NCBI GenBank assembly: GCA_964540515.1 | Contig: CAZIMS010000003.1 | Location: forward strand, 10,010 to 74,009 | Direction of reading: 5' to 3' | DNA length: 64,000 nt | Origin: an uncultured Pseudomonadota bacterium | Lineage (GTDB): Bacteria > CALINM01 | Part shown: piece by piece, positions 27,910 through 54,602 of the stretch | Layout of the letters: the number at the start of each line of letters is the position of its first letter | Position numbering within the stretch: position 1 is the first letter of the stretch | Program-made: the position numbers and the translations under genes | The notes under the pieces: model-generated | What the model saw: the letters and a program-made list of their open reading frames with translations, nothing else | Database searches by the model: none | What the model was told of the DNA's origin: nothing

Positions 27910-28822
27910 AATTTTAATTATCTTTCTTCTTTTTTTTAATGTAAAAATTGTTTTTGCACTAAAGATAGAGCCAGATTTCATCAAGATTGGAGAAATATTA
28001 AAAGAAACGGAATACACTTTTAATATTAAAGTTTTTAATAATAGCAATGAGCCAATAGAGATCTTAGGGGTTATAAATCAATGTGGCTTAAATTTTAATC
28101 TTGAGAGGAAATATCTGTCTCCCCTGAAAGCTATATATGGCGAATTAAGATTCAACTCGGGCACTAACCCCGGCAGATTTATTGAATCTGTGAAGATAGT
28201 ATATAAAGAGAAAGACACAATTAAACAAAAAACACTTACTGTTAGCTGGTTCAATAAAGTTGAGTTTTATAGCAAACTTTTTATTTTGGATAAGAAAATT
28301 GATTTAGGTGAAATAAAACAAAATAGAAGCAAAAAATTTTTCATAGAAGTTGTTAATGCTGGTAATAGCGAGGGGGAGATTTTATTTCATGCCCTTGATG
28401 AAGGTTTGACTACAAATGTTAGAGAGAAGATACCCCCCAAATCTAATAAATTTTTGGAACTTAAGCTTGATGCTAAAACAGAAGTTATAAAAAAAAGATT
28501 AAGCTATGAGAAGCTTGATGTAAGAGGGGGTAGTGGTTTTGTAGAAATATTTGGAAGACCTTCTCAAATTTATTCTATTAGTATTGATAATCCTGTAAAA
28601 AAAGACCAGACCTATGAGTTAAGTTTGATAATGAATAATGTAAATAGTTTAGGGCAGTTATTAGAAGTTAGAGATGTTCATGGAAATAAATACGCTTTTG
28701 ATAGATCAGCGATTTTTAGAGGGGATAACATTATCAAGGTGTTTGTGCCAGAAAAAAATATTGATATTGTAGTTAAAAATGGAATTGTTTTGACTGTTAA
28801 GTTTCTACTTAATGATGAATAA
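27890..28822 (+). CDS. Secreted protein with two DUF1573-like (Ig-like) repeats
   Basis: Signal peptide. Repeats IKIGEILKETEYTFNIKVFNNSNEPIEILGVINQCG and IDLGEIKQNRSKKFFIEVVNAGNSEGEILF resemble the DUF1573 consensus (DFG.i..g....F...N.G..pL.I). Confidence 0.35.
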   Translation: MLMKLNKILIIFLLFFNVKIVFALKIEPDFIKIGEILKETEYTFNIKVFNNSNEPIEILGVINQCGLNFNLERKYLSPLKAIYGELRFNSGTNPGRFIESVKIVYKEKDTIKQKTLTVSWFNKVEFYSKLFILDKKIDLGEIKQNRSKKFFIEVVNAGNSEGEILFHALDEGLTTNVREKIPPKSNKFLELKLDAKTEVIKKRLSYEKLDVRGGSGFVEIFGRPSQIYSISIDNPVKKDQTYELSLIMNNVNSLGQLLEVRDVHGNKYAFDRSAIFRGDNIIKVFVPEKNIDIVVKNGIVLTVKFLLNDE

Positions 28823-30500
28823 TAACTTAAAGAAGCACTACTTTTACCTGTACATCTCAGTAATTATTTTTATGTCCCTTATAATTTATGGAAAAACAGT
28901 ATTTTTTTCCTTTGTTACCGATGATTGGATGAATATTTTTGACAATAGTTTGTATTTTTCTTTGGAAGATATTAAAAGGATCTTTACTTCTACTCAGATT
29001 AATTATAGAGACGAAAGTTATTATAGGCCCTTAGATACAATCTATTTCCTAATCACATTTAATCTTTTTAATGACAATCCCTTTTATTACCATATCCTTA
29101 ATATATTTTTTTTTATATTTTTCCTTATTTTATTTTATTGCTATTGCTTAAAAAAGTTTTCTGATAGAAACTTAGCTTTAATTTTAATATTACTTTTTTT
29201 GTCTCATCCTATAAATGTAGAAACTGTTTCATGGATTTCAGCAAGAAATCAGATTTTAATAGGCATTTTTTTTGTCTTGGCGATAACTTTTTCTGAAAAA
29301 ATTTTTGAGAAAGGCAACATTAATATTTTTCTAATTTTAATTTCTGGTGTTATGGCCTCTCTAATACACGAGATAGGGTTAATGGTATTTCCATTGGTAA
29401 TTTTTTTGGTTTTTAATCAATCAGTAAATATAAATGTAGCAAAAATTAAAAAAAAACAAATAATTTTGTTATTTTCTTTTTCTATTATTGTAATTTTATA
29501 TTTGTATGTAAGAAGTTTTTTGGGAATTACTTTAAAAATTGAACATAGTTTATATGAGAGATTATTAACGTCTTTTATTATTTTTAAAAAAACAATTTTT
29601 AATCTTGTCTTCCCCTTTAATCTCAAACTCTATTATCATGAGTTAGTGGTCAAGAAATCAATGGATTTAGAAGTAATGAGTTCAATATTAATTTTTGTGT
29701 GTTTTTTAACTGTTACTACCTTTATTGCTTTGAAAAATCCTATTGCAAGAGTTGGTTATTTCTTCTTTTGGCTAACATACGTACCTTTTTCAGGAGTTTT
29801 CAAGTTAATTGATAGGTCTTTTATATCTGACAGATATCTTTTTTTGCCCTTATGTGGAATACTGATAATGTTTTTTGCGGTTGCAAAAAAAAATTTATCT
29901 AACTATTCTAAATACCTTTATTTAGTATCTTTTTTTGTTATTATAATTTTTTCCATTATAAGTTTTAATAGAGTGGATATCTGGAAAAATGACTTAGAAA
30001 ACGCAAAAGAGCTCGTGAGAGAATATCCTGAAGAAGACAGTTATAGAAATAACCTTGCGATACTCTATTTAAACAATGGTGATTTGGATGCTGCAGAAAA
30101 GGAGTTTTTAGAAGCAATGAAAATAGCCAAATACCAAAAAGATTATTTAGTCGCTACAGAGGCTTTTATCAGTATTATAAAAGGCAATAGGGAGGAGGCT
30201 AAAAAAATTTATTTGAATTACTTAAATACAAATAAGTATAACATGAAAATTAATTATAACTTAGGGGTACTTTTTTTAGAAGAAGGTGATAGAGAAAAGG
30301 CAAAATATCATCTTGAACTTGCAAAGAAAGTAGCAAAAAAATACTTAAGAGAATATCCAGACATTTTGAATAATTTAGGAGTTATCGAATTTATTAGTGG
30401 AAATAATAAAAATGCAGAAAGTTATTTTCTCGAAGGATTAAAAATTAGACCCTATGACAAAAGGCTATTGCAAAATATAGAAAAAATAAGAAAAGATTAG
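28812..30500 (+). CDS. TMTC/DUF1736-like GT-C glycosyltransferase: N-terminal multi-TM domain plus C-terminal TPR repeats (paralog 1)
   Basis: Motifs FSFVTDDW (DD in the first loop), YYRPL, SARNQ and ISDRYLFLP, then TPR repeats (NNLAILYLNNGDLDAAEKEF...). This is the architecture of TMTC-type O-mannosyltransferase-like proteins. Confidence 0.65.
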   Translation: MMNNNLKKHYFYLYISVIIFMSLIIYGKTVFFSFVTDDWMNIFDNSLYFSLEDIKRIFTSTQINYRDESYYRPLDTIYFLITFNLFNDNPFYYHILNIFFFIFFLILFYCYCLKKFSDRNLALILILLFLSHPINVETVSWISARNQILIGIFFVLAITFSEKIFEKGNINIFLILISGVMASLIHEIGLMVFPLVIFLVFNQSVNINVAKIKKKQIILLFSFSIIVILYLYVRSFLGITLKIEHSLYERLLTSFIIFKKTIFNLVFPFNLKLYYHELVVKKSMDLEVMSSILIFVCFLTVTTFIALKNPIARVGYFFFWLTYVPFSGVFKLIDRSFISDRYLFLPLCGILIMFFAVAKKNLSNYSKYLYLVSFFVIIIFSIISFNRVDIWKNDLENAKELVREYPEEDSYRNNLAILYLNNGDLDAAEKEFLEAMKIAKYQKDYLVATEAFISIIKGNREEAKKIYLNYLNTNKYNMKINYNLGVLFLEEGDREKAKYHLELAKKVAKKYLREYPDILNNLGVIEFISGNNKNAESYFLEGLKIRPYDKRLLQNIEKIRKD

Positions 30501-30506
30501 GGTTAT

Positions 30507-31706
30507 ATGAGATTAATTGTTTATCAGGTAGATTTAAGGATGACTATCCTGTGTCAATTTTTGTGATTTATATCTACAATCTCATTATATTTAGTAACAC
30601 TCTTTTATTTGATCTTGTTTGGGATGATATCTCCTTTCTACTGGAAAACCTCAAAATAATAGAATTAAATAGATTTTTATTTTTTTGTAGAACCCATGCC
30701 CACTGATATTTGGCCTATTAATTATAGACCTCTGCTGATGTTTAGTTTTGGCTTGGATTGCGCTCTTTGGGGATATAAATCCTTAATCTTTTAGATTGTA
30801 TTTTGAGTATCTTAGATTATTGTTTTTCCTCTACCAACTTAAATTGATTTATCATCAATTGCCTATATAAAGATTTTTTTCAGTTTGGATATATGCCATA
30901 CGCAATTTTCTTAGTTATTATATTTATTTTCTTTTTTAAAATAAGGGGAAGATATGGATTTTTTTTGTTTTGTCTCAATAATAATCTCACTTATAACGGC
31001 CTCAGATTTCTAAGTCTTATTGATATCTCACCTCTCGAAGAAAGGTATTTATATTTTCCGAGGGTTTTTTTGGTTTTCTTTAGTTCTATTTATTATAAAA
31101 GAAGTAAATAAAAAGGTAGTTCTTTATATAGCAATTGGTTTTATGGGACTTTATAGTTTTTTTTGGAATTTTAATTGGAAGAACCAAGGTGGCTTTCTGA
31201 CAAAAAAGATAAAAGATGATCCTAACTATAAAGGAGTTCATCATGAGTTTGCCCCTTTTAATCTTATAAAAGGAAATATTGATTTTTCCGAAAGGCCTTC
31301 CAAGAAAGCAATAGATATAAGAAGAGATTATTTAGAGGCTTATGTAATGTCTGAGAACCTATACAGTCTAACAAGAAGGGATGAAGAAGCTCTCCCCTAT
31401 TACTAAAAAGCTTCTCAGATAAATAAGCATAACCTTCTAATTTAAAATAATATTGCTACTACCTACCAAAATATGATGAAATTAGATAAGGCGCTTCTAA
31501 ATTACTACAGGGCTTTTCAAATTGATGAAAATTTTTATAAAACAAATTATAATCTTGGTTATTTACTTTGGAGAGTTAACAGAAATTTAGAAGCTATTAA
31601 CTTTTTGAGAAGGCCTTATAGTATAATAAATAATATTAACTTGCTAAAAGATATTAGACAATTTGAAATAGATATAGAAAAAGAGTTAAGAAATGGGGAA
31701 AGATAA
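30507..31706 (+). pseudogene. Decayed TMTC/DUF1736-like paralog (frameshifts and an internal deletion)
   Basis: Fragments in three frames carry the family motifs: LFDLVWDDISFL, then a shift in a T-run to PINYRPLLMFSFGLD, then LEERYLYFP (30893-31111), then WNFNWKNQ...KDDPNYKG plus TPR remnants (31020-31706). Total length is well short of the roughly 1.7 kb of the intact paralogs. Confidence 0.7.
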
Positions 31707-33765
31707 AAAGATTTTTTTCAGTATTTTAGGTGTGGTAATACTTTTTAATATTATCAACAGATTGAGCTTTTTAAGATATGTCTTTGCCTTTCCCGAACTT
31801 AGACTTGTTGGTCCTGATAGTTTTTATCATTTAAAAAGAATAATTTATACCTTTGAAAATTATCCAGAGATGCTTATGTTTGATCCTTTTTTATCATATC
31901 CAGAGGGTGATTTTGTTCCATGGCCGCCTTTATTTGATTTCATAGGTGGTAGTCTTGCAAAAATAATTGGTAATCCTATTTATTCATCTGTTTTTTTAAA
32001 TTTTTTTGTAGGGTTATTAACTCTATTATTAATATTGTTATATTTAAGTAAAAGGCATATAACAGCGACTATAGTCTCACTTAGTATATTAGCAGTTTCA
32101 ACATTATTTGTTAGTTCTCAGAGCGTTGGCAATATAGACCATCATGCTTTAGAAGTTTTTTTGGTTTTATCTTTTTATCTGTCTTTTGCTTACTTAGAGA
32201 ATAAAATTTGGAAGGTTATCATTTTATCTATTATAGTAACACTAAGCTTCTTCAATTGGCCAGGTGCACCTTTATATTATGGTCCCGTTTTTTTATTTAA
32301 TTTAGTTAATATGATAAAGAAAGAAAACAATAAGTTCAATTGGGTTAATATAGCCATTCCGTTCTTTGTTTCAGGTTCTTTAATCTATCTGTATTTGACT
32401 TTTTCTGGTTATAATGTCTTTGATTATTCTTACAGATTTTTTTCAAGGTTTCATGTAGATTTTTGCTTCTTCGTTGCCTTTGTGTCATTTGCTGCAATTC
32501 TTTATGGGGCAAAGCATATACCAAAATTTATTCCCTTAACTCTAACAGTAGTCATTTTTGTAATTTTTAGGGGGATATTCTTTGAGGTTTTTGGTGGAAT
32601 GGGCTATCTAACAAAGACGGCAGAGAGTCAACTTATGGGTTTAGTCAGTGAGTCACAACCATTGTTTTTTGGTAATAATAGATTTTTTATTGATGATTTT
32701 GTTAGAAATCTGTTTTTTTTTAGTATTTTTTATCTCATCAGTCCCTTTATTATTTATAGAGAGATTAAGAAGAAAAATAATGAATTACTTTTTTTTGCCT
32801 TAGTATATTTTTTCTTGTTAACATTTTTTCAGATCAGAATGGGTATCTTTTTTGTTCCTTTTATAGCAATTTTCTGTGGTTATTTAGCTTTTGAATATTA
32901 TAAATCAGGAAAAACATTTATAAAAAAGCATATTTTTTTAATAGTAGCTCTAATAAATATGCTTGTTATGACAATAATATGGTTTAGACTGGGTTATGAA
33001 AATTATGATTTTGGGAAACACACTATCTATGAAACTATGAATTACCTTAGGGAGAATACTAAAGATAAAGAGAGGTTTCAAAGAGGTGAGGTGCCCTATG
33101 GTATTTTTACTGCCTGGGACATTGGGCATTACGTAGTAACCTTGGGAAACAGGCCTGCAATCGCACATAACTTTATTACCAATGCAAGAAATAATAAGGA
33201 ACTTGAGTATATAAAGGCTATTTACTCAAAATCTGAAGATGAGATTGTTAGTTTGATGGATAAAAACAATACCCCCTATTTAATCATATCTAATCTTTAT
33301 CAGTATGTGGCAAATAGTTGGAGTTTAGTTTATAATTCTTATAATCCCTATGTAACAGAATATGAAGATAAGGTAGAGTTAAATGATAATATTAATGATT
33401 TATTTTTGAATAATCTTGTATTTGGAGGCTATCCCTCTAAGCACTTAAGAATAGTCTTTGAAGCCGATTTTAAAGATAACTTACATGATTACATAGCTAT
33501 TGTAGAAAGGGTTAAGGGGGTAAAATTAGTAACAAAAGAGAAAGGGGTCATTATAGTAAACTTAAAAACAAAAAATGGAGACCTTGAACTTTCATATAAT
33601 CCTGAAAATATTGGCCAAAAATATATCTTTACAGTACCATATTCAACAGATAAGAAATTTGATGTAATAGTAGATAGTGTACTATTTAAAAATGAGAGGG
33701 GTATAAAGAGGCTTTTCATAAGTGAGGAAGAAGTGATTAATGGAGTTGAAAGAATTTTATTTTAG
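31693..33765 (+). CDS. STT3/AglB-like oligosaccharyltransferase homolog (GT-C), 690 aa, paralog of 21387-24002
   Basis: Same motif set: GPDSFYHLKRI...LSYPEGDFVPWPPLFD in loop 1, GNIDHHALE, and FTAWDIGHYV at the WWDYG position, followed by a C-terminal soluble domain. Confidence 0.55.
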   Translation: MGKDKKIFFSILGVVILFNIINRLSFLRYVFAFPELRLVGPDSFYHLKRIIYTFENYPEMLMFDPFLSYPEGDFVPWPPLFDFIGGSLAKIIGNPIYSSVFLNFFVGLLTLLLILLYLSKRHITATIVSLSILAVSTLFVSSQSVGNIDHHALEVFLVLSFYLSFAYLENKIWKVIILSIIVTLSFFNWPGAPLYYGPVFLFNLVNMIKKENNKFNWVNIAIPFFVSGSLIYLYLTFSGYNVFDYSYRFFSRFHVDFCFFVAFVSFAAILYGAKHIPKFIPLTLTVVIFVIFRGIFFEVFGGMGYLTKTAESQLMGLVSESQPLFFGNNRFFIDDFVRNLFFFSIFYLISPFIIYREIKKKNNELLFFALVYFFLLTFFQIRMGIFFVPFIAIFCGYLAFEYYKSGKTFIKKHIFLIVALINMLVMTIIWFRLGYENYDFGKHTIYETMNYLRENTKDKERFQRGEVPYGIFTAWDIGHYVVTLGNRPAIAHNFITNARNNKELEYIKAIYSKSEDEIVSLMDKNNTPYLIISNLYQYVANSWSLVYNSYNPYVTEYEDKVELNDNINDLFLNNLVFGGYPSKHLRIVFEADFKDNLHDYIAIVERVKGVKLVTKEKGVIIVNLKTKNGDLELSYNPENIGQKYIFTVPYSTDKKFDVIVDSVLFKNERGIKRLFISEEEVINGVERILF

Positions 33766-33783: not shown

Positions 33784-35505
33784 ATGATTTTTGAAAGATA
33801 TTTTGATAAAAAGATAAGTTTCTTTGTTTTTATATCAATTTTAACTATTTTATGCTTCTTTAATGCCCTCTTTATGGATTTTGTATGGGATGATATTGTA
33901 CACTTAGATAAATTTAAATTTATATTAAAGAATTTTTCTGATTTATTGGATTTTTTCAAAAGTACCAATATTGTTGGACAACCTTTTTACTATAGACCAC
34001 TAATGTTAATAAGCTACGGATTAGATTATCTTCTTTATAATACTAATTCCTTCGGATATCACTTAACTTCATTAATAATTCATATTCTAAATGTTTTTTT
34101 AGTATTTCTGATTACTGAGAAAATATTAAATAAAAATGTTGCTCTTTTAAGCTCCATTATATTTGCTATTCATCCCGTTCACGCTGAACCAGTTGTCTGG
34201 ATATCCGCTCGAGCAGATGTGTTAAGTGCATTATTCTTATTTGCTTCTTTTTATTTTTATCTGAAATTATTAGATGAAGGGAAATACAAATATTTTGGTG
34301 CAACAATATTTTTCTATGCCTTAACAATTTTAACCAAAGAAACCTCAATAGTCTTACCGATAATTTTTTTGATATATCCTTTCTTCAAGAATGATAAGTT
34401 TAAAAAAAATATATATATTACCTTTCTTTTCACTTTGCTTTTGTCTATAGGATATATTATTGTTAGGATTAATATTGTAAACAGTTTTTGGGGAACTGAT
34501 TATTTCCCTTTTCAGTCGAAAATAGCAACTATCCCTTTAGTTATTTTAAGTTACTTCAAATTGTTTTTTTATCCCTTTGACCTAAGGTTGTTATATAATG
34601 AGCCAAAGATATTGTCAGAGCCAAATTTATATTCATTTATTAGTTGGGGGATTTTATTTTTATTCATTTTATTTATATTTACTCTCTACAAACGAGAAAG
34701 ACTGATTACTTTTTTCTTGGTATTCTACCTACTTTTTCTTTTACCTGTTTCAGGTATAGCTACATTTATAAGAGTGTCTTTAATTGCCGATAGATATTTA
34801 TACTTACCCTCCTATGGTCTAATTGTTTTTTGTTCTTATTATTTTTTAAAACTTTATGAGGTTTTTAAAAGTGAGAAGGCAAAAAAATATCTGGAAAAAT
34901 TGTTTTTTGTTTATTTATTAATACTTTTTTTATTGACTGTTTTTAGGAACTTTCACTGGAGCGACCAATTTAATTTTTTATCGAAAATGATAAAAGATAA
35001 ACCTGATTATTATGGAGCTTATATTCATTTAGGAACTTATTATCTATCAGCAAAAAGGTTTAATGAAGCTGAAGATGCCTTTGAGACTGCTTTAAAATAT
35101 ATGGGCGAAGAAGATATACATATAGTTATGAATAATTTTTGTGTTTTATATTTTGAGAAAGGTGATTATGTTGAAGCAGAAAAATATTGTCTTAAAAGTA
35201 TAGAGCTGAACAAAGAGTATTCTTTTCCTTATTATAATCTTGCTTCAATTTATTTAGAAACAGATCAGCTAAACAAATCCTATATTGTAATACAAGAAGC
35301 TATAAAGTATGATAAACTAAACCCAGATTTCTATAATAAGGCAGGTTATATAGCTTTACTTTTAGGGCATATTGATGAAGCAATAATGTACATAGATAAA
35401 GCAATAGAATTAGATCCTAAAAATGAGATGTTTAGAAGAAATAAAGAAATAATATTAAAATTTGGATTTTCTTCAAAGGTGCAAGATGTTGTACAAAAAC
35501 CTTAA
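33784..35505 (+). CDS. TMTC/DUF1736-like TM+TPR GT-C glycosyltransferase (paralog)
   Basis: MDFVWDDIVHL, FYYRPLML, SARADV and IADRYLYLP, followed by C-terminal TPRs. Confidence 0.65.
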   Translation: MIFERYFDKKISFFVFISILTILCFFNALFMDFVWDDIVHLDKFKFILKNFSDLLDFFKSTNIVGQPFYYRPLMLISYGLDYLLYNTNSFGYHLTSLIIHILNVFLVFLITEKILNKNVALLSSIIFAIHPVHAEPVVWISARADVLSALFLFASFYFYLKLLDEGKYKYFGATIFFYALTILTKETSIVLPIIFLIYPFFKNDKFKKNIYITFLFTLLLSIGYIIVRINIVNSFWGTDYFPFQSKIATIPLVILSYFKLFFYPFDLRLLYNEPKILSEPNLYSFISWGILFLFILFIFTLYKRERLITFFLVFYLLFLLPVSGIATFIRVSLIADRYLYLPSYGLIVFCSYYFLKLYEVFKSEKAKKYLEKLFFVYLLILFLLTVFRNFHWSDQFNFLSKMIKDKPDYYGAYIHLGTYYLSAKRFNEAEDAFETALKYMGEEDIHIVMNNFCVLYFEKGDYVEAEKYCLKSIELNKEYSFPYYNLASIYLETDQLNKSYIVIQEAIKYDKLNPDFYNKAGYIALLLGHIDEAIMYIDKAIELDPKNEMFRRNKEIILKFGFSSKVQDVVQKP

Positions 35506-45342: not shown

Positions 45343-46598
45343 GTAGAGAACATAAAGAGATTAAAAAATGTAGAATTTGTGGTAATGATGATTTTGAGGA
45401 GATAATATCTTTAGGTAATTTAGCCTTTACAGGCATTTTTCCCAAAAAAAAAACTATATCTGTACCTTATGGTCCCCTAACGGTTATTAAGTGTTCAGAA
45501 AAGAATGGAAAAGGCTGTGGAGTCCTTCAGTTAAAACATAGTTTCGATAAGTATAAGCTTTATGGCGAGAGTTATGGCTATAGGTCAGCCCTAAATGTAA
45601 GTATGGTTAATCATCTGAAAGATATTTCTATGGATATTAAAAAAATCTTGGATCTGAAAAAAGACGATATTATCTTGGATATAGGTAGTAATGACGGCAC
45701 CTTTCTTTCCTTTTTCGAAAAAGATTACATACTGATAGGCGTTGATCCAACAGCTCTAAAGTTTATTAAATATTATAGAGATGACATTATGGTAATAGCA
45801 GATTTTTTTAGCAAAGATAAGGTTATTAAGCTTATAGGTAAAAAAAGACCTAAGGTTATAACTTCTATTGCTATGTTTTATGATTTAGAAGATCCTGTAG
45901 CCTTTGCTAAAGAGATTAATGATCTACTTGATGATGATGGATTATGGGTATTTGAACAGAGCTATACTCCCAATATTTTTAAAAAAAACGGCTATGATAC
46001 AATATGTCATGAGCATTTACTTTATTACTCATTGAGAGATATAAAATTGATCTTGGATAAGTCTGGTTTTAAGATTTTAGAGATAAAACTAAATAACGTA
46101 AACGGTGCGAGCATAAGGTTATATGCTGCAAAAAGTAGATCGAGATATAAAAGTGCTACAAAGAAGATAAAAGCCATCTTGGAATATGAAAGAAGGATTG
46201 GTTTTTATGAAGAGCCTTTTTTTAAAAATTTTAGAGAGGCTATTTTAAGACACAAAGATGAACTAGTTGGTTTTATTGAGAATGAAATCAAGAAGGGCAA
46301 AAAGTTTTTTGGTTACGGTGCTTCTACAAAAGGTAATGTAATCCTACAGTTTTGTGGTATAAACGATAGGCATATTAAATATATAGCGGAGGTAAATGAG
46401 GATAAGTTTGGTAACTATACCCCAGGAAGTTTGATTAAGATTATATCCGAAAGAGATGCAAGGCAGCTTAGACCAGATTATTTTTTGGTTCTGCCATGGC
46501 ATTTTAAAAAAGGGATTATTTCAAAAGAAGATTCCTATCTTAAAAGTGGTGGCAAACTGGTTTTTCCCCTTCCTAACTTAGAGGTAATTAATGGCTAA
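45339..46598 (+). CDS. SAM-dependent C-methyltransferase with an N-terminal zinc ribbon (sugar C-methyltransferase family, TylCIII/NovU-like)
   Basis: N-terminal CRICGNDDFEEI...C..C zinc-binding domain, a class I methyltransferase core (ILDIGSNDGTF), and a C-terminal domain typical of the Methyltransf_13/14 pair. Confidence 0.7.
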   Translation: MSREHKEIKKCRICGNDDFEEIISLGNLAFTGIFPKKKTISVPYGPLTVIKCSEKNGKGCGVLQLKHSFDKYKLYGESYGYRSALNVSMVNHLKDISMDIKKILDLKKDDIILDIGSNDGTFLSFFEKDYILIGVDPTALKFIKYYRDDIMVIADFFSKDKVIKLIGKKRPKVITSIAMFYDLEDPVAFAKEINDLLDDDGLWVFEQSYTPNIFKKNGYDTICHEHLLYYSLRDIKLILDKSGFKILEIKLNNVNGASIRLYAAKSRSRYKSATKKIKAILEYERRIGFYEEPFFKNFREAILRHKDELVGFIENEIKKGKKFFGYGASTKGNVILQFCGINDRHIKYIAEVNEDKFGNYTPGSLIKIISERDARQLRPDYFLVLPWHFKKGIISKEDSYLKSGGKLVFPLPNLEVING

Positions 46599-47523
46599 TG
46601 TTTTTATAGTAGGTGCTGGCGGTCAGGATGGCAGGATCTTGTTGAACTATCTCAAGAATGAAGAGGTTATATGCTTCTATAAAGAGAGGATATCTTTTTT
46701 ATCTGAAAGAAGGGAGATAAATATAGAAGAATATAAAAAAGAGATAGTTTTTGATATGGTAAGAAGATATAATCCTCAATATTTATACTATCTGGCAGGT
46801 TATCACCATTCTTCCGAAGAAAGTCAAGGGCTTGATATTGATGTATTTGAGAGGAGTAATTTTACCCATGCAGTCTTGTTTAGTTATTTTCTGGAAGCAA
46901 TGAGATTGTATGCCCCTAAGGGTCGTATCTTTTATGCAGCCTCATCTTTAATTTATGGCAATCCTAAGGTAGAGATATTAGATGAGAATAGGCCTATAAA
47001 TCCTATATGCCTTTATGGTATTACAAAGGCCACAGGATTTTTTTTAGCCAAATATTATAGAGAAAAACATAATATGTTTGTTTCTAATGGAATCCTATTT
47101 AATCACGAATCTGAATATAGACCCGAGAGATTTCTTTTTACTAAGGTAATCAAAAGGGCCTTTGCCATAAAAAATGGTTTAGAAAATAAACTATTAATTG
47201 GGAATCTCAAGGCGGTAAACGACTGGGGATATGCCTATGATTATGTGAAGGCAATGATTAATATTTTAAATCTTAAAAATGCTGATGATTTTGTAATAGC
47301 GAGCGGTGAGGCTCACAGCGTAGAAGAGCTTGTGGAGATAGTTTTTTCCCATTTAGGTTTAAACTATAAGGATTATGTATGTGAAGATAGTAGCTTAATT
47401 GTAAGAAATAAGCCTGTCTTGATAGGAAATCCTTCAAAATTAATTAAAGCGACTGGCTGGAAGAGAGAGGTTAGTTTTAAAGAGATGATAATAAGAATTA
47501 TGGATGCTTTAAGAGATGGATAG
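46591..47523 (+). CDS. NAD(P)-dependent sugar nucleotide 4,6-dehydratase/reductase of the GDP-mannose 4,6-dehydratase (Gmd/Rmd) family
   Basis: Rossmann motif VGAGGQDGRIL, catalytic YGITKATGFFLAKYY (YxxxK), and ILFNHESEYRPERFLFTKVIKR matching the Gmd NHESPRRGxxFVTRKI block. Confidence 0.7.
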   Translation: MANVFIVGAGGQDGRILLNYLKNEEVICFYKERISFLSERREINIEEYKKEIVFDMVRRYNPQYLYYLAGYHHSSEESQGLDIDVFERSNFTHAVLFSYFLEAMRLYAPKGRIFYAASSLIYGNPKVEILDENRPINPICLYGITKATGFFLAKYYREKHNMFVSNGILFNHESEYRPERFLFTKVIKRAFAIKNGLENKLLIGNLKAVNDWGYAYDYVKAMINILNLKNADDFVIASGEAHSVEELVEIVFSHLGLNYKDYVCEDSSLIVRNKPVLIGNPSKLIKATGWKREVSFKEMIIRIMDALRDG

Positions 47524-48226
47524 ACTACTAATTTTTATTCCTACCTACAATGAAAAAGAGAATGTTAAAGAAATGGTTAGACAGATCAACTCTACAAATT
47601 TAGAGTTGGACCTTCTTTTTGCTGATGACAACTCTCCTGATGGAACAGGTAAGATACTTAATGAACTAAAAAAGGAATATAAAAACCTCTTAGTGGTTCA
47701 TAGAGAAAAGAAAATGGGTATAGGTAGTGCCCACAAGTTTGGCATTAAATACGCCTATGATAATAATTATGATTATCTGATTACTATGGATTGTGATTTT
47801 ACCCATAGTCCTTCTGATATAACAAAATTTTTGAAAGAAAAAGACTATGATGTTGTAGTAGGTACACGTTATAAAGATAAGAAAAGTTTAGAAGATTGGA
47901 ATTTATATAGAAGATTTCTAACAAAATTAGGACATTTCTTAACAAAAACCCTATTATCTTTAGAGTATGATGCGACAGGTGCTTTTAGATTATACAATTT
48001 AAAGAAGATTGATAGTGAAATTTTTGATAAAGTTGAATCTAATGGTTATGCCTTTTTTTTTGAGAGCTTATTTTTCCTAAACTTAAAGGGTTATAAGATT
48101 AAAGAAGTTCCCATAATCCTTCCCAAGAGAACTTATGGCAGCTCAAAAATGTCCTTTCTTGAGATCTTTAAAAGCCTCAAAAGGCTTGGAAGACTTTTTT
48201 TGTACAGAACTGGAATTTTAAGATGA
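47516..48226 (+). CDS. GT2 glycosyltransferase, polyprenyl-phosphate sugar synthase (Dpm1-like), copy 2
   Basis: LLIFIPTYNEKENV...LLFADDNSPDGT...ITMDCDFTH. Confidence 0.8.
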   Translation: MDRLLIFIPTYNEKENVKEMVRQINSTNLELDLLFADDNSPDGTGKILNELKKEYKNLLVVHREKKMGIGSAHKFGIKYAYDNNYDYLITMDCDFTHSPSDITKFLKEKDYDVVVGTRYKDKKSLEDWNLYRRFLTKLGHFLTKTLLSLEYDATGAFRLYNLKKIDSEIFDKVESNGYAFFFESLFFLNLKGYKIKEVPIILPKRTYGSSKMSFLEIFKSLKRLGRLFLYRTGILR

Positions 48227-48870
48227 CTATGGACTGGGAAGAGTACTGGCAGGCAAAAAAAGTTGGGAAGAGACCTTTTTATGATATTATTGCCTCTCTA
48301 TACAGATTTTTTATAATAAGAAGAAGCCTAAATTATTTTATCAAGAAATATGCCAAAAAAGAGAATTATCTCCTCCACGCAGGCTCAGGGAGTGGTGAAG
48401 TAGATAAAGACCTAATATATAATTATAAGATATTTGCTATTGATAGCTCAGCTGAGGCGATGAATATTAACAGAGTTGATAATTATAAAGTGAGAGGCGA
48501 TATCTTTTTCTTACCCTTTAGGGATAATACTTTTGATATAGTCTATAATCTCGGAGTGCTTGAACACTTTAGTAGAGGTGAGATAATAAAATTGCTTTGT
48601 GAGTTTAAAAGAGTTCTCAAGAAGAAAGGCTATCTTATAGTTTTTATACCACCAGAGTTTGGATTAACGGTGGTCTTTTTCAAATTACTCAAGAAGTTTT
48701 TAAAAATTTTTATGAGAAGTGAGGTTGAGTTTCATCCCAAAGAGCCATCGAGACTAAAGTCTAAAAAAGAAGCTCTGGAATTTTTAGATGAGTCTGGTTT
48801 AAAATTAAAAGAATATTACTTTGGCATAAGAGACCTCTTTACTTATTCTGTAATAATAGCTGAAAAATGA
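48223..48870 (+). CDS. Class I SAM-dependent methyltransferase
   Basis: LLHAGSGSGEVD (motif I) and a downstream acidic-loop motif. The protein is 215 aa. Confidence 0.6.
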   Translation: MTMDWEEYWQAKKVGKRPFYDIIASLYRFFIIRRSLNYFIKKYAKKENYLLHAGSGSGEVDKDLIYNYKIFAIDSSAEAMNINRVDNYKVRGDIFFLPFRDNTFDIVYNLGVLEHFSRGEIIKLLCEFKRVLKKKGYLIVFIPPEFGLTVVFFKLLKKFLKIFMRSEVEFHPKEPSRLKSKKEALEFLDESGLKLKEYYFGIRDLFTYSVIIAEK

Positions 48871-50420
48871 TCAAGACAGAAAAAAAACTCTACATTTTTT
48901 TATTACTTTTAATAACCTCAATATTTTATCTGAGAGTTTTCTTCCTTGATTTTGTATGGGATGATATACCTCAGGTAATACATAATACAACGGTTAAAAA
49001 TTTTGATCTTTTCAATATGTTTATAAAAGATGGAGAGTGGGGGATAGCAGTTAGGGAGACAAAAACACCTTACTATAGGCCAATCTTTATATTATCTTTA
49101 GCCATAGATTACCTTATTGCTGGTGAAAATCCAGCGTTTTTTCATACAACCAATCTAATATTACATCTTCTTCTAACTTTAGCAATATTTTATACGCTTT
49201 CTTACTACTTTGAGGATAAATTTTATGCCTTTTTAGGCTCCTTGTTTGTAGCTCTTTATCCTGCAAGGGCTGAGGCTGTTGTCTATGTAAGTGCAAGGCT
49301 TCATATTTTAGGAGCTCTTTTTTCGATATTAACCTTTTATCTATTAAAAAGATATTTTACTGAAAATAATAAAAAACTATATTACCTTTCAGTTTTAACC
49401 TTTTTTCTAAGTATCTTTAGTTTTGAGATGAGTCTCTTCTTGCCAGTCTTTGTAATTTTAGAAAATGGCTTCTCAAAGTTGAAAAATACAGTCAAGATAT
49501 TGGCGCCTCATATTGTTCTGATTATAATCTATTTTCTTGCAAGATGGTTAGTACTTACGAAGTATATATGGTTTGATGTGCCCTTTCCTACAAAGTTTTT
49601 TACTGGATTAGCCACTTTTGTTAAGTATTTAGAGATAATTTTTTTCCCCTTTAATCTGAAAACCTTTTATGAAAATTTTGATTATTTCAAGAAAAATATT
49701 GATTTAGATGTGGCTTTTGGTTTTGTCTTGCTTAGCCTATTAATATACAGTCTCTACATATCTTACAAGAAAAATAGGGTAATATTTTTGGGGCTACTGT
49801 GGTTTTTGTTAACATTCTTCTTTGTATCTAATATCCCCTATCTTATGTATCCATCACTAATAGCAGAAAGATATCTTTACTTTCCATTAATAGGACTTGC
49901 TTTTATTATCCCTGAGTGTTTTAGAGTTTCTATAAAGGATGAGAATAAAAAAAAGATAATAATAGTAAGTGTTACTATTTTGTTTTTAATACCTGCCTTC
50001 TATTCAATTTATAAAAGGACAACACCTTATAAAAACAATCTTCTCTTTTGGCAAGAGGCTATAAAGGATGCCCCTAAAAATACTTATGCCCTTGATCAGC
50101 TTGCGCAGGTTTATTTAGGAATGAATAACTATTTTGAGGCTTTAAGGCTCTATGAGATAATTGCTGAGATTAATCCAGGAGATTTTGATAATTATACAAA
50201 GATGGGCAATTTTTATTTAAAATTTGGCAATTATTTAAACGCTGAGATTTACTACAACAAGGCTTTAGAGATAAAAGAGTATGATGAGGCCTATTGGGGG
50301 CTTGCAAGAGTTAATATATTAAAAAATGATTTTGAGAAAGCCAAAATCTACCTTGAAAAGGCTATAAAAATATCCCCTCATAAGAAAAAATATAGAGAAA
50401 GCTTACAGAGTATTAGGTAA
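48867..50420 (+). CDS. TMTC/DUF1736-like TM+TPR GT-C glycosyltransferase (paralog)
   Basis: LDFVWDDIPQV, PYYRPIFIL, SARLHI and IAERYLYFP, followed by C-terminal TPRs. Confidence 0.65.
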   Translation: MIKTEKKLYIFLLLLITSIFYLRVFFLDFVWDDIPQVIHNTTVKNFDLFNMFIKDGEWGIAVRETKTPYYRPIFILSLAIDYLIAGENPAFFHTTNLILHLLLTLAIFYTLSYYFEDKFYAFLGSLFVALYPARAEAVVYVSARLHILGALFSILTFYLLKRYFTENNKKLYYLSVLTFFLSIFSFEMSLFLPVFVILENGFSKLKNTVKILAPHIVLIIIYFLARWLVLTKYIWFDVPFPTKFFTGLATFVKYLEIIFFPFNLKTFYENFDYFKKNIDLDVAFGFVLLSLLIYSLYISYKKNRVIFLGLLWFLLTFFFVSNIPYLMYPSLIAERYLYFPLIGLAFIIPECFRVSIKDENKKKIIIVSVTILFLIPAFYSIYKRTTPYKNNLLFWQEAIKDAPKNTYALDQLAQVYLGMNNYFEALRLYEIIAEINPGDFDNYTKMGNFYLKFGNYLNAEIYYNKALEIKEYDEAYWGLARVNILKNDFEKAKIYLEKAIKISPHKKKYRESLQSIR

Positions 50421-52201
50421 TGATATCTTTTAAAAAAATAAAAAATGAAAAAATTTATTCTTATTTAGCTTTTATAGTTTTTATAAGCCTTTTAGTCTTT
50501 GCTAATACCCTCTTTTTTGACTATGTGTGGGATGATACTCACCAGATTAAATATAACAGGTCTCTAAGGGATATCAAAAACATTTATGATTTCTTTCTCA
50601 GCCCAATACCTGAGATGCCCATGTATTACCGCCCCATCTTTATGTTGTCACTATTAATTGATTATCAGATATGGGGACCTTCTCCCTTTGGGTTTCATCT
50701 AACTAATATCTTACTAAACATTTTCTCTAATATACTAATTTTCATTGTAGTAGAAAGAATTTTTAAATCGAGGGCTATTGCCTTTATAGCAGCTCTTATA
50801 TTTGCTGTTCATCCATCCCATTCTTCATCGGTATCTTATATATCAGCAAGAAATGAGTTACTTTGTGGTTTTTTTGTTCTCCATGCCTTTTCTTTTTATA
50901 CAAAATATAAGATGGAAAGAAACAAGAGAATACATCTTTTATTAAGTCTTACTTTTTACATTCTTGCTTTACTATCTAAAGAAATGGCTATTACTATGCC
51001 TTTTCTTGTTTTACTTTATGAGTATGCCTTTCACAAAGAAGATATAAGAAGAGACTTTAAGCATATATTTCTATTTATCTTTACTACATTCATTTATTTC
51101 TTAATTAGGCTACTTGTTTTAGAAGCAGAAGCACAAAGCTTTCCTCTTTTATGGAGATTGGCTACATTCTCGAAGGTACTTTTATATGACCTCTTTATGC
51201 TTTTTTTTCCCTTCTTTCATAAGGCCTTCCATAAAGTTGAGATCTTAGAGGGTTTTTCTAACTTTTTATCGTTATTATATCTTTTGTGTGTCCTGCTGAT
51301 TTTGGCTTTAACTATCTTTTTAAGCAAGTATGATAGGAGACTCTTTTTCCCCTTTACATGGATTATTATCTCATTAATTCCGGCAACAACTATAATAACT
51401 TTTATTTACCCTACTCTTGTTGCCGAGAGATACCTATATATACCTTCTATGGGTTTGGCGATGTTTTTAGCTGTTTTTTATTATGATATTTATAATCTAA
51501 TTACAAAAAAATTTCCTCGAAAGGCCCTTTTCTTAAAAATAGCCTTTGGATTAATAACGCTGGTCTTTTTAGTGCTTACATTCGAAAGAAATTTTGAGTA
51601 TAAGGACAATCTAACTCTATGGAAGACTGCTAAAGAGGATGAGCCCTATGAGCCCTATGTTATAGATAAATTAGCGCAATCTCTAATTGAAAAAAAATAT
51701 TACGCTCAAGCTGAGGTGGAGCTTAAAAGGCTTGAGATGATAGACTATAATAACCCTCAGGTGCATCAAAAACTTGGTAATCTATATAAGAGATGGGGAA
51801 GATATGATTTAGCAGAGGCTAAATATTTATTAGCTCTAAAATTTGCACCAGATGACAACTTGGTTCTTGATGATCTTGCAGATTTATATAAGAGAAAGGG
51901 TGATTTAGATAGAGCATTAAGTATCTTTTTGCGCTCCATAGAGATAGAGCCTAAGGACTCTAATGTAAACTATGAAATAGGAGAGATCTTACTGCAAAAA
52001 AATGATTTATTTCAAGCAGAGAAGTTTTTCCTGAATGCCATTGCCTATAATCCAGATCATCATCTTGCCTTTTCGAGATTGGGAGAGATATATATGTTTA
52101 TAGGAAGAATAGATCTGGCTAAAGAGATGTTTAAGAAAGCCCTTGTATTAGAACCTGAAAATGAGGATTACAAAAACAAACTTTTGATGATAGGGCAATA
52201 G
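50420..52201 (+). CDS. TMTC/DUF1736-like TM+TPR GT-C glycosyltransferase (paralog)
   Basis: FDYVWDDTHQI, MYYRPIFML, SARNEL and VAERYLYIP, followed by C-terminal TPRs. Confidence 0.65.
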   Translation: MISFKKIKNEKIYSYLAFIVFISLLVFANTLFFDYVWDDTHQIKYNRSLRDIKNIYDFFLSPIPEMPMYYRPIFMLSLLIDYQIWGPSPFGFHLTNILLNIFSNILIFIVVERIFKSRAIAFIAALIFAVHPSHSSSVSYISARNELLCGFFVLHAFSFYTKYKMERNKRIHLLLSLTFYILALLSKEMAITMPFLVLLYEYAFHKEDIRRDFKHIFLFIFTTFIYFLIRLLVLEAEAQSFPLLWRLATFSKVLLYDLFMLFFPFFHKAFHKVEILEGFSNFLSLLYLLCVLLILALTIFLSKYDRRLFFPFTWIIISLIPATTIITFIYPTLVAERYLYIPSMGLAMFLAVFYYDIYNLITKKFPRKALFLKIAFGLITLVFLVLTFERNFEYKDNLTLWKTAKEDEPYEPYVIDKLAQSLIEKKYYAQAEVELKRLEMIDYNNPQVHQKLGNLYKRWGRYDLAEAKYLLALKFAPDDNLVLDDLADLYKRKGDLDRALSIFLRSIEIEPKDSNVNYEIGEILLQKNDLFQAEKFFLNAIAYNPDHHLAFSRLGEIYMFIGRIDLAKEMFKKALVLEPENEDYKNKLLMIGQ

Positions 52202-52246: not shown

Positions 52247-52978
52247 ATGATTTCTATGGATAAAGACATCTCTGTGGTCATTCCAGCCTATAATGAAGAA
52301 AAAATAATAGAGCAAACGGTAAAAAAAATTAGAGAATATCTAAGTTCGAAGGGATTTAGCTACGAGATTATAGCTGTAAATGATGGTTCTTCTGATAGGA
52401 CGGAAGAAATTTTGATAAAACTAAAAAATGAGATTGAGGAGCTAAAAGTTATTAATCATAAGGAAAATATGGGCAAAGGGAGATCTGTTAAAGATGGGGT
52501 TTTAAACTCTTTAGGAGAGCTAATATTATTTACAGATGCAGATCTGTCAGCTCCAATAGAAAACTTAGATGGGTTAATAGAAGAGTTAAAAAAGGGGTAC
52601 GATGTGGTTATCGCATCAAGAGAGATTGAAGGGGCAAAGGTAAGAAAAAGAACTTTAATTAGAAGGGTACTTAGCAAAGTTTTTAATCTTGCCATAAAAA
52701 TATTTGGTTTTAAAGGTTTTAGAGATACCCAGTGTGGTTTTAAACTTTTTAAATCTACTGTAGCCCAGTTTCTTTTTCTCAAATCAAGAATAAATGGATA
52801 TGCCTTTGATGTAGAGATACTGCATATAGCAGAAAAAAGGGGCTATAAAATAAAGGAATATCCCATCTTATGGATAGATAGAAAAGATTCAAAGATGAGG
52901 CTTTTTAAAGATGGACTAAGAATGCTGAAAGAGGTTATAAAGATTAGGTATTATGATTGGAAAGGCTATTATATATAA
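52247..52978 (+). CDS. GT2 glycosyltransferase, polyprenyl-phosphate sugar synthase (Dpm1-like), copy 3
   Basis: ISVVIPAYNEEKII...IIAVNDGSSDRT...ILFTDADLSAP. Confidence 0.8.
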   Translation: MISMDKDISVVIPAYNEEKIIEQTVKKIREYLSSKGFSYEIIAVNDGSSDRTEEILIKLKNEIEELKVINHKENMGKGRSVKDGVLNSLGELILFTDADLSAPIENLDGLIEELKKGYDVVIASREIEGAKVRKRTLIRRVLSKVFNLAIKIFGFKGFRDTQCGFKLFKSTVAQFLFLKSRINGYAFDVEILHIAEKRGYKIKEYPILWIDRKDSKMRLFKDGLRMLKEVIKIRYYDWKGYYI

Positions 52979-54602
52979 AGAGTGGAAGGAAAAACATTAT
53001 TATCTTTTTTTTATAGCTCTAAATCTTGTCTTATATTTTAATACACTATTTTTTGGTTTTGTCTGGGATGATATTAGACAGATTGTGTTTAATGATAGGC
53101 TAATATCTCAGATAGTAGATTTATCATTTCTCTTTAGCCCAGTAGGAGAAAATGTTTCTTACTATAGGCCAATCTTTTTTCTATCTTTAGCTATTGAGGC
53201 ATTTTTGTTTAAAGGACAGGCCTTTGGATTTCATTTAGGAAATATAATTTTACAGATATTGGTAGTTATTTTTATCTTTAAGCTTTTAAGAGCGATGAAT
53301 ATTGATAGTAGTTTGTCTCTTTTAACAGCTTTTATCTTTTCCATTCATCCGTCCCACTCGGAGCCTGTTTCTTGGATTTCTGCAAGAAATGAGATTTTAT
53401 ATAGTCTTTTTGGTTTAATCTCATTCTATCTTTATATTAGAGGTAGCTATCTTTCTTTTCTTTTTTTTGTCCTCTCTTTGCTTTCTAAAGAGACTGCCAT
53501 AATCTTACCAGTGCTGATCTTTCTTTATGAGATAATATTTAATGGCAAGTTAGAAAAAAAGCGAATCTTTTTCATCATTTCGTTCTTTTTATTGTCCTTT
53601 TGCTATTTAGTATTTAGGAAGTTTCTTCTTCCAGAACCTTTTGGCGACGAGGTTTATGTTAATGTAAGAGTTTTTACGACTATAAATAATTTAGCCTTTT
53701 ACTTAAAAAAGATGTTTTTTCCCTTTGATTTAAAAGTTTTTTACAGTGGTCTCATTAAAAATAGTTTTGATAGAGAGGTTGCTTTTTCGTTAATCACCCT
53801 AATCTTATTCTCCATTTTTAGCTTTTTAGTAGTTAGGAGGGATAGAAGAGTCCTTTTTTTTATCCTATGGTTTATTCTTCTTATTTTGCCTGTATCAGGT
53901 GTTGTTGTTACATCAACTATAACATATGGCTCTGATAGATATTTATATCTACCTTCTTTAGGGTTATCTTTTTTGTTTGCCCTTTTTTTATCAAAGCTGT
54001 CACCAAAAAAACTATTAATAGTACTTTGCTTTCTTCTATTTGTTTTAGGTGGCTATTCTGTAAAAAGAAATTTTTCCTACAAGGATCAGCCAACATTTAT
54101 CAATGAGGCATTAAAAGATGCGCCATCGGATCCTCTCGTTTTAAACGAAATCGGAGTTTATTATTATTTCATAGGGAGGCTTGATCTCGCAGAAGAGGTG
54201 TTTAAAAAGGTAATAGCTTTGAGTCCAAAAAGTTATGGTGGTTACTACGACCTTGCGAGGGTACAGTATGATATAGGGCTTTTATTGGAGGCGAAGGATA
54301 ATTTTCTAAAGGCCCTTGAGCTAAAACCCAACTTTTCACCAACATATTATTTCTTAGGAGAGATAGCTCTTAAAGAAAAAAGATTAGAAGAGGCATATAA
54401 ATTATTTTCCGATGCCATAAGATATAATAAAAACTATGCAGATGCTTACAATAGGCTTGGTGAGATTGAAGTATTAAAAGGAAACTTAAGAGAAGCTTAT
54501 TCGCTCTTTGAAAGAGCCTACTCCCTTGAGCCCGACAGAGATTACTTAAACAACATGAAGAAAATTGAGGGGTCTATAAATCCCTATTCCCCGAGAAGGT
54601 AA
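52953..54602 (+). CDS. TMTC/DUF1736-like TM+TPR GT-C glycosyltransferase (paralog)
   Basis: FGFVWDDIRQI, SYYRPIFFL, SARNEI and GSDRYLYLP, followed by C-terminal TPRs. Confidence 0.65.
   Translation: MIGKAIIYKEWKEKHYYLFFIALNLVLYFNTLFFGFVWDDIRQIVFNDRLISQIVDLSFLFSPVGENVSYYRPIFFLSLAIEAFLFKGQAFGFHLGNIILQILVVIFIFKLLRAMNIDSSLSLLTAFIFSIHPSHSEPVSWISARNEILYSLFGLISFYLYIRGSYLSFLFFVLSLLSKETAIILPVLIFLYEIIFNGKLEKKRIFFIISFFLLSFCYLVFRKFLLPEPFGDEVYVNVRVFTTINNLAFYLKKMFFPFDLKVFYSGLIKNSFDREVAFSLITLILFSIFSFLVVRRDRRVLFFILWFILLILPVSGVVVTSTITYGSDRYLYLPSLGLSFLFALFLSKLSPKKLLIVLCFLLFVLGGYSVKRNFSYKDQPTFINEALKDAPSDPLVLNEIGVYYYFIGRLDLAEEVFKKVIALSPKSYGGYYDLARVQYDIGLLLEAKDNFLKALELKPNFSPTYYFLGEIALKEKRLEEAYKLFSDAIRYNKNYADAYNRLGEIEVLKGNLREAYSLFERAYSLEPDRDYLNNMKKIEGSINPYSPRR

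Follow-up and report, generated by a model that had tools for sequence, protein, structure and literature searches.

Seven ancient paralogs of predicted TMTC-type glycosyltransferases in a bacterial glycosylation-gene island

A 64-kb stretch of contig CAZIMS010000003.1 from an uncultured Pseudomonadota bacterium, hereafter the window, carries on its + strand at 28812-54602 a TMTC-like gene family made up of six intact open reading frames (ORFs) and one decayed copy. As judged from their sequences, these seven genes are ancient paralogs within a bacterial branch of the TMTC-type (CAZy GT105) GT-C glycosyltransferases. They are interleaved with two AglB-like oligosaccharyltransferase genes, and it is fairly probable that the paralogs transfer polyprenyl-phosphate-linked sugars in the periplasm, with the work divided among them by donor and/or acceptor. 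Each intact copy encodes a transmembrane (TM) domain followed by tetratricopeptide repeats (TPRs); lengths are in amino acids (aa).

c1, 28812-30500, + strand: 562 aa, TMTC-like GT-C domain plus TPRs, variant site FVTDD, RNQ, H-E, DRYLF
Pseudogene, ~30540-31703, + strand: seventh paralog, decayed, ortholog of the intact R_b of a related genome
c2, 33784-35505, + strand: 573 aa, canonical motif set
c3, 36999-38768, + strand: 589 aa, 6 TPRs, divergent, without the M3 Arg (ISGF) and without the M7 acidic residue (GRYLY)
c4, 48867-50420, + strand: 517 aa, 4 TPRs, variant site YPAR, RLH, F-E, FFFVSN
c5, 50420-52201, + strand: 593 aa, 6 TPRs, E137 replaced by S, PFFHK present
c6, 52953-54602, + strand: 549 aa, 5 TPRs, canonical motif set, the copy used for structure modelling

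When a hidden Markov model of the TM domain was run against the 64-kb window, it matched the six intact copies (E 1e-134 to 1e-144) and the decayed copy only. The extent and composition of the family given in the initial annotation were thereby confirmed, as was its count of four to six TPRs per copy, which is seen in domain matches, in the alignment and in the c6 model, whose C-terminal part forms ten helices in five pairs. The window copies share 22-33% pairwise identity. An insertion of 35 residues is present in c3 and c5, and c4 has a deletion of 41 alignment columns.

To place the family, we used the N-domains of human TMTC1-4 as aligned by Eisenhaber et al. 2021 (PMC7801869, Additional file 1). 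The six window TM domains aligned with them nearly end to end in hhalign (probability 99.9%, E 1.9e-33, 367 columns, 24% identity), and BLASTP of c6 against TMTC3 gave E 2e-17. A control comparison of the TM profile with residues 28-397 of C. metallidurans ArnT returned a probability of 0.5% and E 0.11. The published TMTC motifs M1 DD, M2 YRP, M3 RxD, M4 KE, M6 P(V/A)SN and M7 (E/D)RxxY are present in the family, though not each in every copy, in unchanged order, with M3 lying inside an HPxHTE..GRxD block; the SHKS prefix of M2 is not found in the window copies, which have Y/H-Y there instead. The alignment with TMTC1-4 thus indicates that the motifs are common to the TMTC family. Together with the predicted GT-C fold and the predicted periplasmic position of the DD loop, these results support the earlier description of the proteins as TMTC-like TM+TPR glycosyltransferases. 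Domain libraries report almost only TPRs for these proteins; c2 alone reaches Pfam PMT_2 (PF13231, E 2.5e-13), and no copy has a Pfam match to PF02366 PMT or to MIR. An assignment to PMT/GT39 is ruled out by the missing PF02366 and MIR matches and by the TPR C-terminal domain, and an ArnT-like role in lipid A modification is ruled out at the sequence level by the ArnT comparison.

The structure of c6 was predicted with AlphaFold2, both in full length (pLDDT 93.1, pTM 0.92) and as a TM-only model (pLDDT 91.8). In a Foldseek search of the PDB with the TM-only model, the top 28 matches were all GT-C-fold membrane proteins, namely PglB, STT3, AglB, Pmt4, Pmt1/2, ArnT, Emb (EmbB), AftD and a GPI-transamidase subunit, with query TM-scores of 0.30-0.55 and a probability above 0.9 in all but one. 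Yeast ALG3, the sole ALG structure in the list, came at rank 46 (E 1.8). From the model, a GT-C fold is predicted for the membrane domain. Full-length queries returned TPR proteins only, in the PDB sequence search as well as in Foldseek, and the TM-only sequence profile had no PDB match at E<=10, meaning that no TMTC-type structure could be detected there by sequence; it was the TM-domain-only structural query that proved informative.

The c6 model contains 11 TM helices and a juxtamembrane helix at 236-255, which fits TMTC topology. Across 13 of 13 proteins (the six window copies and the seven copies of the relative described below), the density of Lys and Arg is 0.24-0.36 in the proposed cytoplasmic loops versus 0.08-0.12 in the motif-bearing, proposed periplasmic loops. 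By the positive-inside rule, this charge bias puts both the DD loop and the TPRs on the outer side, and we predict that the DD loop, the donor-binding motifs and the TPR domain face the periplasm. The predicted location of the DD pair, named beforehand as a point on which the initial annotation might fail, is therefore favourable to it.

The island also occurs in a related genome, represented by the 53.7-kb Logan contig SRR27730033_10381 (L003), where it has nearly the same gene order and seven intact copies, R_a to R_g. Five window copies have 1:1 orthologs there, in retained order.

R_a: ortholog of c1, 47% identity
R_c: ortholog of c2, 59% identity
R_e: ortholog of c4, 64% identity
R_f: ortholog of c5, 63% identity
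R_g: ortholog of c6, 57% identity

The contrast between 22-33% identity among paralogs and 47-64% between orthologs argues that the duplications long predate the split of the two lineages. The suggestion of an old family with one pseudogene is thus borne out by paralog divergence, by orthologs in the relative and by the mapped decay described below, and the synteny that had been proposed as a check is conserved. Neither c3 nor R_d has a counterpart in the other genome. The best homolog of c3, P0241, is 98.9% identical and probably conspecific, and the next best is only 28% identical; R_d (L003 14427-16082), which the relative has instead, is encoded on the opposite strand and flanked by two GDSL genes. 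The island has been remodelled in this part. A genome scan of GTDB with c6 found distant relatives only, at 22-27% identity, and an exact-sequence look-up of c1 had no match. By its DnaK, the organism belongs to an uncultured lineage: the protein is 87-92% identical to those of metagenome-assembled genomes and, at the next level, 72-77% identical to those of Desulfobaccales, Syntrophobacterales, Binatia and 'Deltaproteobacteria'. Sequencing runs SRR8371833 and SRR27730033 contain close relatives. Against a strain 99.2% identical in DNA, the ratio of nonsynonymous to synonymous rates (dN/dS) is ~0.19-0.20 for c5 and c6 (~0.19 for c5), figures that are based on only 7 and 19 substitutions. The estimate is limited to this near-identical comparison, the deep orthologs (47-64% protein identity) being saturated at synonymous sites.

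Four motifs had been reported in every copy. The motif set is indeed common to the family, but c1, c3, c4 and c5 each deviate from it, and the SAR region of the pseudogene is gone. The first-loop motif reads FVTDD in c1 and YVWDD in c5, c4 has SARL at the SAR position, and in c3 ISGF replaces SAR and GRYLY replaces (D/E)RYLY. An additional common motif, HPxHxE, and a K-E pair had been missed. V-DD, YRP, P133, S143, RYL..P and a few other residues do not vary among the six intact copies. The DD pair is also kept in the pseudogene, and in a family sample of 68 sequences D40 is invariant and D39 is present in 67.

The three motifs M3 RxD, M4 KE(T/Q)xxT and M7 ERxxY are all present in c2, c5 and c6. 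At these positions c1 reads RNQ, H-E and DRYLF, c4 has RLH and F-E, and in c3 the M3 Arg is replaced by F and the M7 acidic residue by G. The variants of c1 and c4 recur in orthologs. A c1-type signature (FVTDD, RNQ, H-E/D, DRYLF) is found in c1, R_a and the homolog P0279 (42% identical to c1), and a c4-type signature (YPxR, RLH, (F/V/I)-E, FFF(V/I)SN) in c4, R_e and P0245 (the latter two both 64% identical to c4); the c5-type signature is HPxHS(S/A) and PFFHK. The substitutions that mark each ortholog group sit at positions otherwise more than 90% conserved and are retained in three lineages, a pattern that favours division of function over decay. As read from the sequences, such lineage-conserved active-site variants fit the proposal, made in the initial annotation, of several specificities among the paralogs.

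One copy has been lost in the window lineage. Its remnants (…NTLLFDLVWDDI…, …NYRPLLMF…, …EERYLYFP… and TPR-like sequence) are scattered over different frames and interrupted by stops. Mapped to the intact ortholog R_b, the pseudogene retains LVWDD, NYRPL and EERYLYFP and is 41% identical over 250 aa, with ~157 codons gone (R_b residues 82-238), at least three frameshifts and several in-frame stops. The same truncated form is found in a contig of the same sequencing run with 98.9% identical DNA (L011 4464-5499). Between the two, the pseudogene region diverges by 2.4% versus 0.74% in the flanking genes, about three times faster, as expected of a dead gene. In at least two strains the pseudogene is fixed. 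At its 3' end it still runs into the start of the AglB-like gene that follows, just as the intact ortholog does in the related genome.

The family is widespread. The TM-domain profile matched 115,402 representatives of 50%-identity clusters at E<=1e-3 and 86,276 at E<=1e-10, and some family members carry NCBI/JGI names such as 'transmembrane and TPR repeat-containing protein F38B6.6' or 'protein O-mannosyl-transferase'. Full-length TMTC homologs with both transferase and TPR parts have been reported in many poorly characterised prokaryotes, for example AMJ42_05695 of Deltaproteobacteria bacterium DG_8 (PMC7801869). We sampled seven loci on long contigs that carry distant homologs. Five tandem TMTC-like copies occur in L014, three or more each in L012 (Geobacter sp. 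OR-1) and L015, and probably two in L016, where the second gene was called from TPR matches only; a single copy is found in three of the seven. Outside these seven, a Nitrospirales metagenome-assembled genome (MAG) from the genome scan (L004) has two. The arrays in L012, L014 and L015 all have neighbours of glycosyltransferase family 2 (GT2), and no AglB-type Pfam match was found among their called genes. In this small sample, the window array is the largest and richest, with seven copies and two AglB-like genes compared with one to five copies in the seven loci. Neither the family nor its clustering is new; the window array adds a large member to a functionally uncharacterised group.

The paralogs lie in a 33-kb stretch of low GC content (0.297, versus 0.38 and 0.356 in the flanks), whose content is almost wholly glycosylation genes. 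The relative's island shows the same drop in GC, which fits membrane-protein composition as well as horizontal transfer. No tRNA genes were found at the island borders and no integrase nearby. An MNT (Polbeta) nucleotidyltransferase and HepT-like toxin-antitoxin pair lies exactly at the left border (20565-21288). The neighbours of the paralogs are as follows.

21387-24002, + strand: AglB/STT3-like oligosaccharyltransferase 1 (AglB1), 871 aa, first island gene; TIGR04154 E 6.8e-99, Pfam AglB_L1 and AglB_core
23995-24684, + strand: GT2_a, soluble GT2; best PDB relatives P. furiosus Dol-P-Man synthase (8.8e-19), ArnC and GtrB
31693-33765, + strand: AglB/STT3-like oligosaccharyltransferase 2 (AglB2), 690 aa, between the pseudogene and c2; TIGR04154 E 6.5e-51
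35473-36945, - strand: B12-binding radical SAM protein, convergent with c2, whose 3' end it overlaps
45339-48870, + strand: sugar-tailoring run upstream of c4, with a C-methyltransferase, a short-chain dehydrogenase/reductase (SDR) resembling GDP-mannose dehydratases/epimerases, GT2_b and a SAM methyltransferase
47516-48226, + strand: GT2_b, soluble GT2; Dol-P-Man synthase E 2e-23
52247-52978, + strand: GT2_c, soluble GT2; GtrB 9e-20, Dol-P-Man synthase 9.7e-20, ArnC 5e-19
54574-55971, - strand: B12-binding radical SAM protein, convergent with c6, whose 3' end it overlaps

Overlapping start and stop codons, which argue for co-expression, run as a chain through the C-methyltransferase, SDR, GT2_b, methyltransferase, c4 and c5 genes: the c4 start codon overlaps the methyltransferase stop, and c5 has one base in common with the stop of c4. 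Further overlaps join the 3' end of GT2_c to the start of c6, AglB1 to GT2_a and a 354-aa ORF, and a DUF1573 gene to c1. The gene order of the tailoring run at 45339-48870 is the same in the related genome. From their sequences, GT2_a, GT2_b and GT2_c are likely candidates for polyprenyl-phosphate sugar synthases. The initial annotation had mentioned mannosyl additions, which we found unsupported; the C-methyltransferase, dehydratase-like, methyltransferase and carbamoyltransferase genes nearby point to modified sugars. Other island genes encode a carbamoyltransferase, a GDSL hydrolase and a fused MFS/spermidine-synthase protein.

The two AglB/STT3-type genes match the TIGR04154 'archaeo_STT3' model below its curated cut-off (332 bits for AglB1, under the 450-bit threshold). 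The genome is clearly bacterial, given the GrpE-DnaK-DnaJ and MacB-type genes in the same window. By eye, two motifs can be recognised in both, namely D-H-H (…SGDHHIAE…, …NIDHHALE…) and WWDYG-like sequences (TWDMG, AWDIG). The AglB2 ortholog in the related genome is 53% identical.

The two radical SAM genes overlap the 3' ends of c2 and c6 by ~30 nt each, an arrangement kept in the related genome; the gene at 54574-55971 is kept in the relative and in the close strain. A radical SAM homolog (28% identical) adjoins the two TMTC-like genes of the Nitrospirales MAG (L004 5157-6605), and in L015 a radical SAM gene lies between GT2s. Sugar or lipid methylation is a possible role for these proteins. 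The fused MFS-like/spermidine-synthase-like protein (981 aa, 42397-45342) lies in the middle of the island and is 59-68% identical in the relative, and a fusion of Spermine_synth with TPRs stands beside the TMTC-like array of an unrelated genome (L015 1-2867). That the membrane part of the 981-aa protein might flip lipid-linked sugars is pure speculation. A NodU/CmcH-type carbamoyltransferase gene, followed by one for a 118-aa membrane protein without a Pfam match, lies at 38792-41114; in the relative, this pair is split by a 50-aa DUF5989 gene. The carbamoyltransferase suggests O-carbamoylated sugars.

Several secreted proteins are encoded nearby. The gene of a DUF1573 protein with an Ig-like beta-sandwich (27890-28822) runs 11 nt into the start of c1 and is conserved upstream of the c1 ortholog; two conserved proteins without a Pfam match, the 354-aa protein with a signal peptide and a 714-aa lipoprotein, are encoded further upstream. 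Animal TMTCs and TMEM260 act on Ig-like domains, and by this analogy the DUF1573 protein is a candidate acceptor or accessory protein. Upstream of the island, at 8976-20264, lie genes for an NHL-repeat protein (8976-10310), a Paired_CXXCH cytochrome and a pair of giant multihaem proteins that are secreted (1595 aa with 34 CxxCH and 1446 aa with 14 CxxCH; 28-31% N+S+T). The same cytochrome and NHL module is also found beside the TMTC-like arrays of Geobacter sp. OR-1 (L012 17368-20434) and of a metagenomic lineage (L014 1-2878). The multihaem and NHL proteins are possible acceptors, although such genomes are rich in cytochromes. The upstream cytochromes have 25-29 N-x-S/T sequons each, with no excess over their N/S/T-rich composition, so the count lends no specific support to them as N-glycosylation targets.

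A mechanism can be drawn from the observed homology, fold, topology, motif conservation, paralog age and conservation, and gene linkage; what we infer in it is the type of donor, the direction of transfer, the protein nature of the acceptor and the division of labour. At the cytoplasmic face, the three soluble GT2s would load single sugars onto polyprenyl phosphate; their best PDB relatives are all polyprenyl-phosphate glycosyltransferases, which makes them the likely source of donors. Some of the sugars would probably be modified beforehand by the neighbouring C-methyltransferase, dehydratase-like and methyltransferase enzymes. After the lipid-linked sugar has been flipped across the membrane, each GT-C paralog would transfer it in the periplasm, with the TPR domain helping to choose the acceptor, most likely a secreted or envelope protein. 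The 11-helix membrane domain would present in its periplasmic loops the catalytic DD pair and the donor-binding YRP, HPxHxE, RxD/E, K-E and (D/E)RxxY motifs. The paralogs would not be redundant and would split the work by donor and/or acceptor.

Several points weigh against this proposal. A Pfam scan of island ORFs with 100 aa or more found no GtrA-like or other recognisable flippase, and the literature searched holds no biochemical data or functional study of any prokaryotic TMTC homolog. TPR domains also occur in polysaccharide-export machinery and are no proof of a protein acceptor. Copies c1, c3 and c4 change family residues that are more than 90% conserved (K179, R145, P313 and E328), and given these replacements in the sequence some copies may be noncatalytic. 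The dN/dS figures come from few substitutions, as stated above. Moreover, no copy matches PF08409 (DUF1736) at E<=0.01, and M5 DW is missing from all six, its position being taken by F/Y/L/I followed by Y/H/K. With no match to that family and hydrophobic residues in place of DW, the label 'DUF1736-like' of the initial annotation is not supported at the Pfam level. The DW motif of TMTCs has been modelled as metal- and phosphate-binding. The TMTC 'DNPA' motif was also not found in the window copies, and their TM7-TM8 loop has ~48 residues versus 75 in the DUF1736 region of TMTC1; the absence of DW and DNPA and the shorter loop explain why DUF1736 does not match. In the bacterial homologs P0028 and P0096, which are PF08409-positive, the DW position reads 'ADY', and the column with their D has F, Y, L or I in the six window copies. 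Much of the bacterial family does not conserve the DW/DUF1736 signature used to recognise TMTCs, so that domain-based annotation calls such proteins only 'TPR repeat protein'.

Transfer to protein by a divided set of paralogs has to be weighed against a role on glycans, in which the paralogs would add sugars sequentially to a lipid-linked oligosaccharide or extend an N-glycan made by AglB. We regard this as doubtful, with a real chance of being right. The ER-lumenal ALG3/9/12/6/8/10 series (ER, endoplasmic reticulum) and Haloferax AglS are precedents for sugar-by-sugar addition from polyprenyl-phosphate sugars. The occurrence of both AglB-like genes in one co-directional packed run (AglB1, GT2_a, three ORFs, c1, pseudogene, AglB2, c2) favours such a role, three GT2s like lipid-sugar synthases together with six GT-Cs resemble a lumenal extension pathway, and conserved paralog-specific active-site variants would fit distinct linkages. 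However, the specific relatives of the window copies are TMTCs, which act on protein Ser/Thr, and not ALG-type enzymes, as the low Foldseek rank of ALG3 also indicates. Every copy has a TPR domain, as do the protein-specific TMTC, TMEM260 and OGT. The island has no cytoplasmic machinery for assembling lipid-linked oligosaccharides, and the arrays of L012, L014 and L015 exist without an AglB-type Pfam match.

The active-site variants could also mean that c1, c4 and perhaps c3 are weakened partner subunits paired with canonical neighbours, so that copy number would reflect the composition of complexes. PMT1-PMT2 and POMT1-POMT2 set a precedent for such heteromers, and the candidate pairs are c1 plus the copy that is now dead, and c4 plus c5. 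Variant and canonical copies do adjoin in both genomes (R_a-R_b and R_e-R_f in the relative; c4 and c5 share a base), and the variant copies change the phosphate-binding Lys and other residues conserved at more than 90%. Against this, all copies retain the catalytic DD, YRP and R-Y-L, the K to H change in c1 could still allow phosphate binding, and c1 has remained intact in the window lineage, where its putative partner has become a pseudogene. We consider pairing of this kind highly improbable; it is compatible with periplasmic transfer by a divided set. A redundant or decaying array with undivided function, the copies being recent tandem duplicates or a horizontally acquired island, is largely refuted and we give it next to no weight. 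The pseudogene, the lack of a c3 ortholog in the relative, the low island GC and the MNT/HepT pair at its left edge would be in its favour, but paralog divergence far exceeds that of the five 1:1 orthologs in the same order, the signatures are kept in three lineages, a dN/dS of ~0.2 points to purifying selection, the relative has the same GC drop, and neither a tRNA nor an integrase is present.

If periplasmic transfer by the divided paralogs is taken further, the island might be a bacterial ER-lumen-like factory in which archaeal-type AglB enzymes and seven domain-specific TMTC-type O-glycosyltransferases jointly decorate secreted proteins. This is speculative and rather unlikely, and the same holds for its conceivable targets, the giant multihaem cytochromes, the NHL protein or the DUF1573 protein, bearing unusual, methylated or carbamoylated sugars. 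If true, it would give prokaryotic TMTC homologs their first assigned function and a prokaryotic counterpart to animal domain-specific O-mannosylation; animal TMTCs carry out cadherin O-mannosylation and are disease genes. The locus offers no new kind of enzyme. It is a compact conserved system for studying the function of prokaryotic TMTC homologs, in which old paralogs with conserved site variants, likely donor synthases and tailoring genes, two AglB-like genes and plausible secreted acceptors lie close together.

Among the closest known systems are the animal TMTC1-4 (GT105), whose membrane domains are homologous to those of the window copies over their full length and likewise comprise 11 TM helices followed by non-cytoplasmic TPRs. 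Both share the motif order DD, YRP, HPxHTE..GRxD, KE, P(A/V)SN and ERxxY, and at the HPxHTE..GRxD block the bacterial consensus is 'ALLFAVHPVHxEAVAWISGRxDxL'. In contrast to TMTCs, the window copies have no DNPA, DW or SHKS, their predicted compartment is the periplasm instead of the ER, and they form seven clustered paralogs with GT2 partners where animals have four dispersed genes. The prokaryotic TMTC homologs described previously (PMC7801869) have the same architecture and belong to the same family, to which the window array adds two interleaved AglB-like oligosaccharyltransferases. TMEM260, which O-mannosylates IPT domains of particular proteins, is reported to lack significant sequence similarity to TMTCs; as described, it acts with specificity for protein domains and resembles the window copies in joining an 11-TM GT-C module to TPR-like repeats.

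PMT/POMT enzymes (GT39) and mycobacterial Pmt share with the window copies the GT-C fold and an acidic pair in the first external loop; PMT/POMT enzymes use a polyprenyl-phosphate-mannose donor, and Pmt4 and Pmt1/2 are among the Foldseek matches. PMTs function as dimers, according to PMC7759382. Unlike them, the window copies have neither PF02366 nor MIR and carry a C-terminal TPR domain, and only c2 reaches PMT_2. ArnT (GT83) and Gtr systems follow a logic like that proposed for the window, in which a GT2 makes a polyprenyl-phosphate monosaccharide and a GT-C enzyme uses it outside the cytoplasm. The Gtr-type paradigm, as outlined in part of PMC11127046, has three components: the flippase GtrA, the GT2 GtrB and the GT-C enzyme GtrC. 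In the island, GT2 and GT-C genes overlap or abut, and no GtrA-like protein was seen among ORFs of at least 100 aa. Whereas ArnT and Gtr systems modify lipid A or polysaccharide and have no TPRs, the window proteins carry TPRs and lack sequence similarity to ArnT, and their GT2 partners are relatives of GtrB and ArnC.

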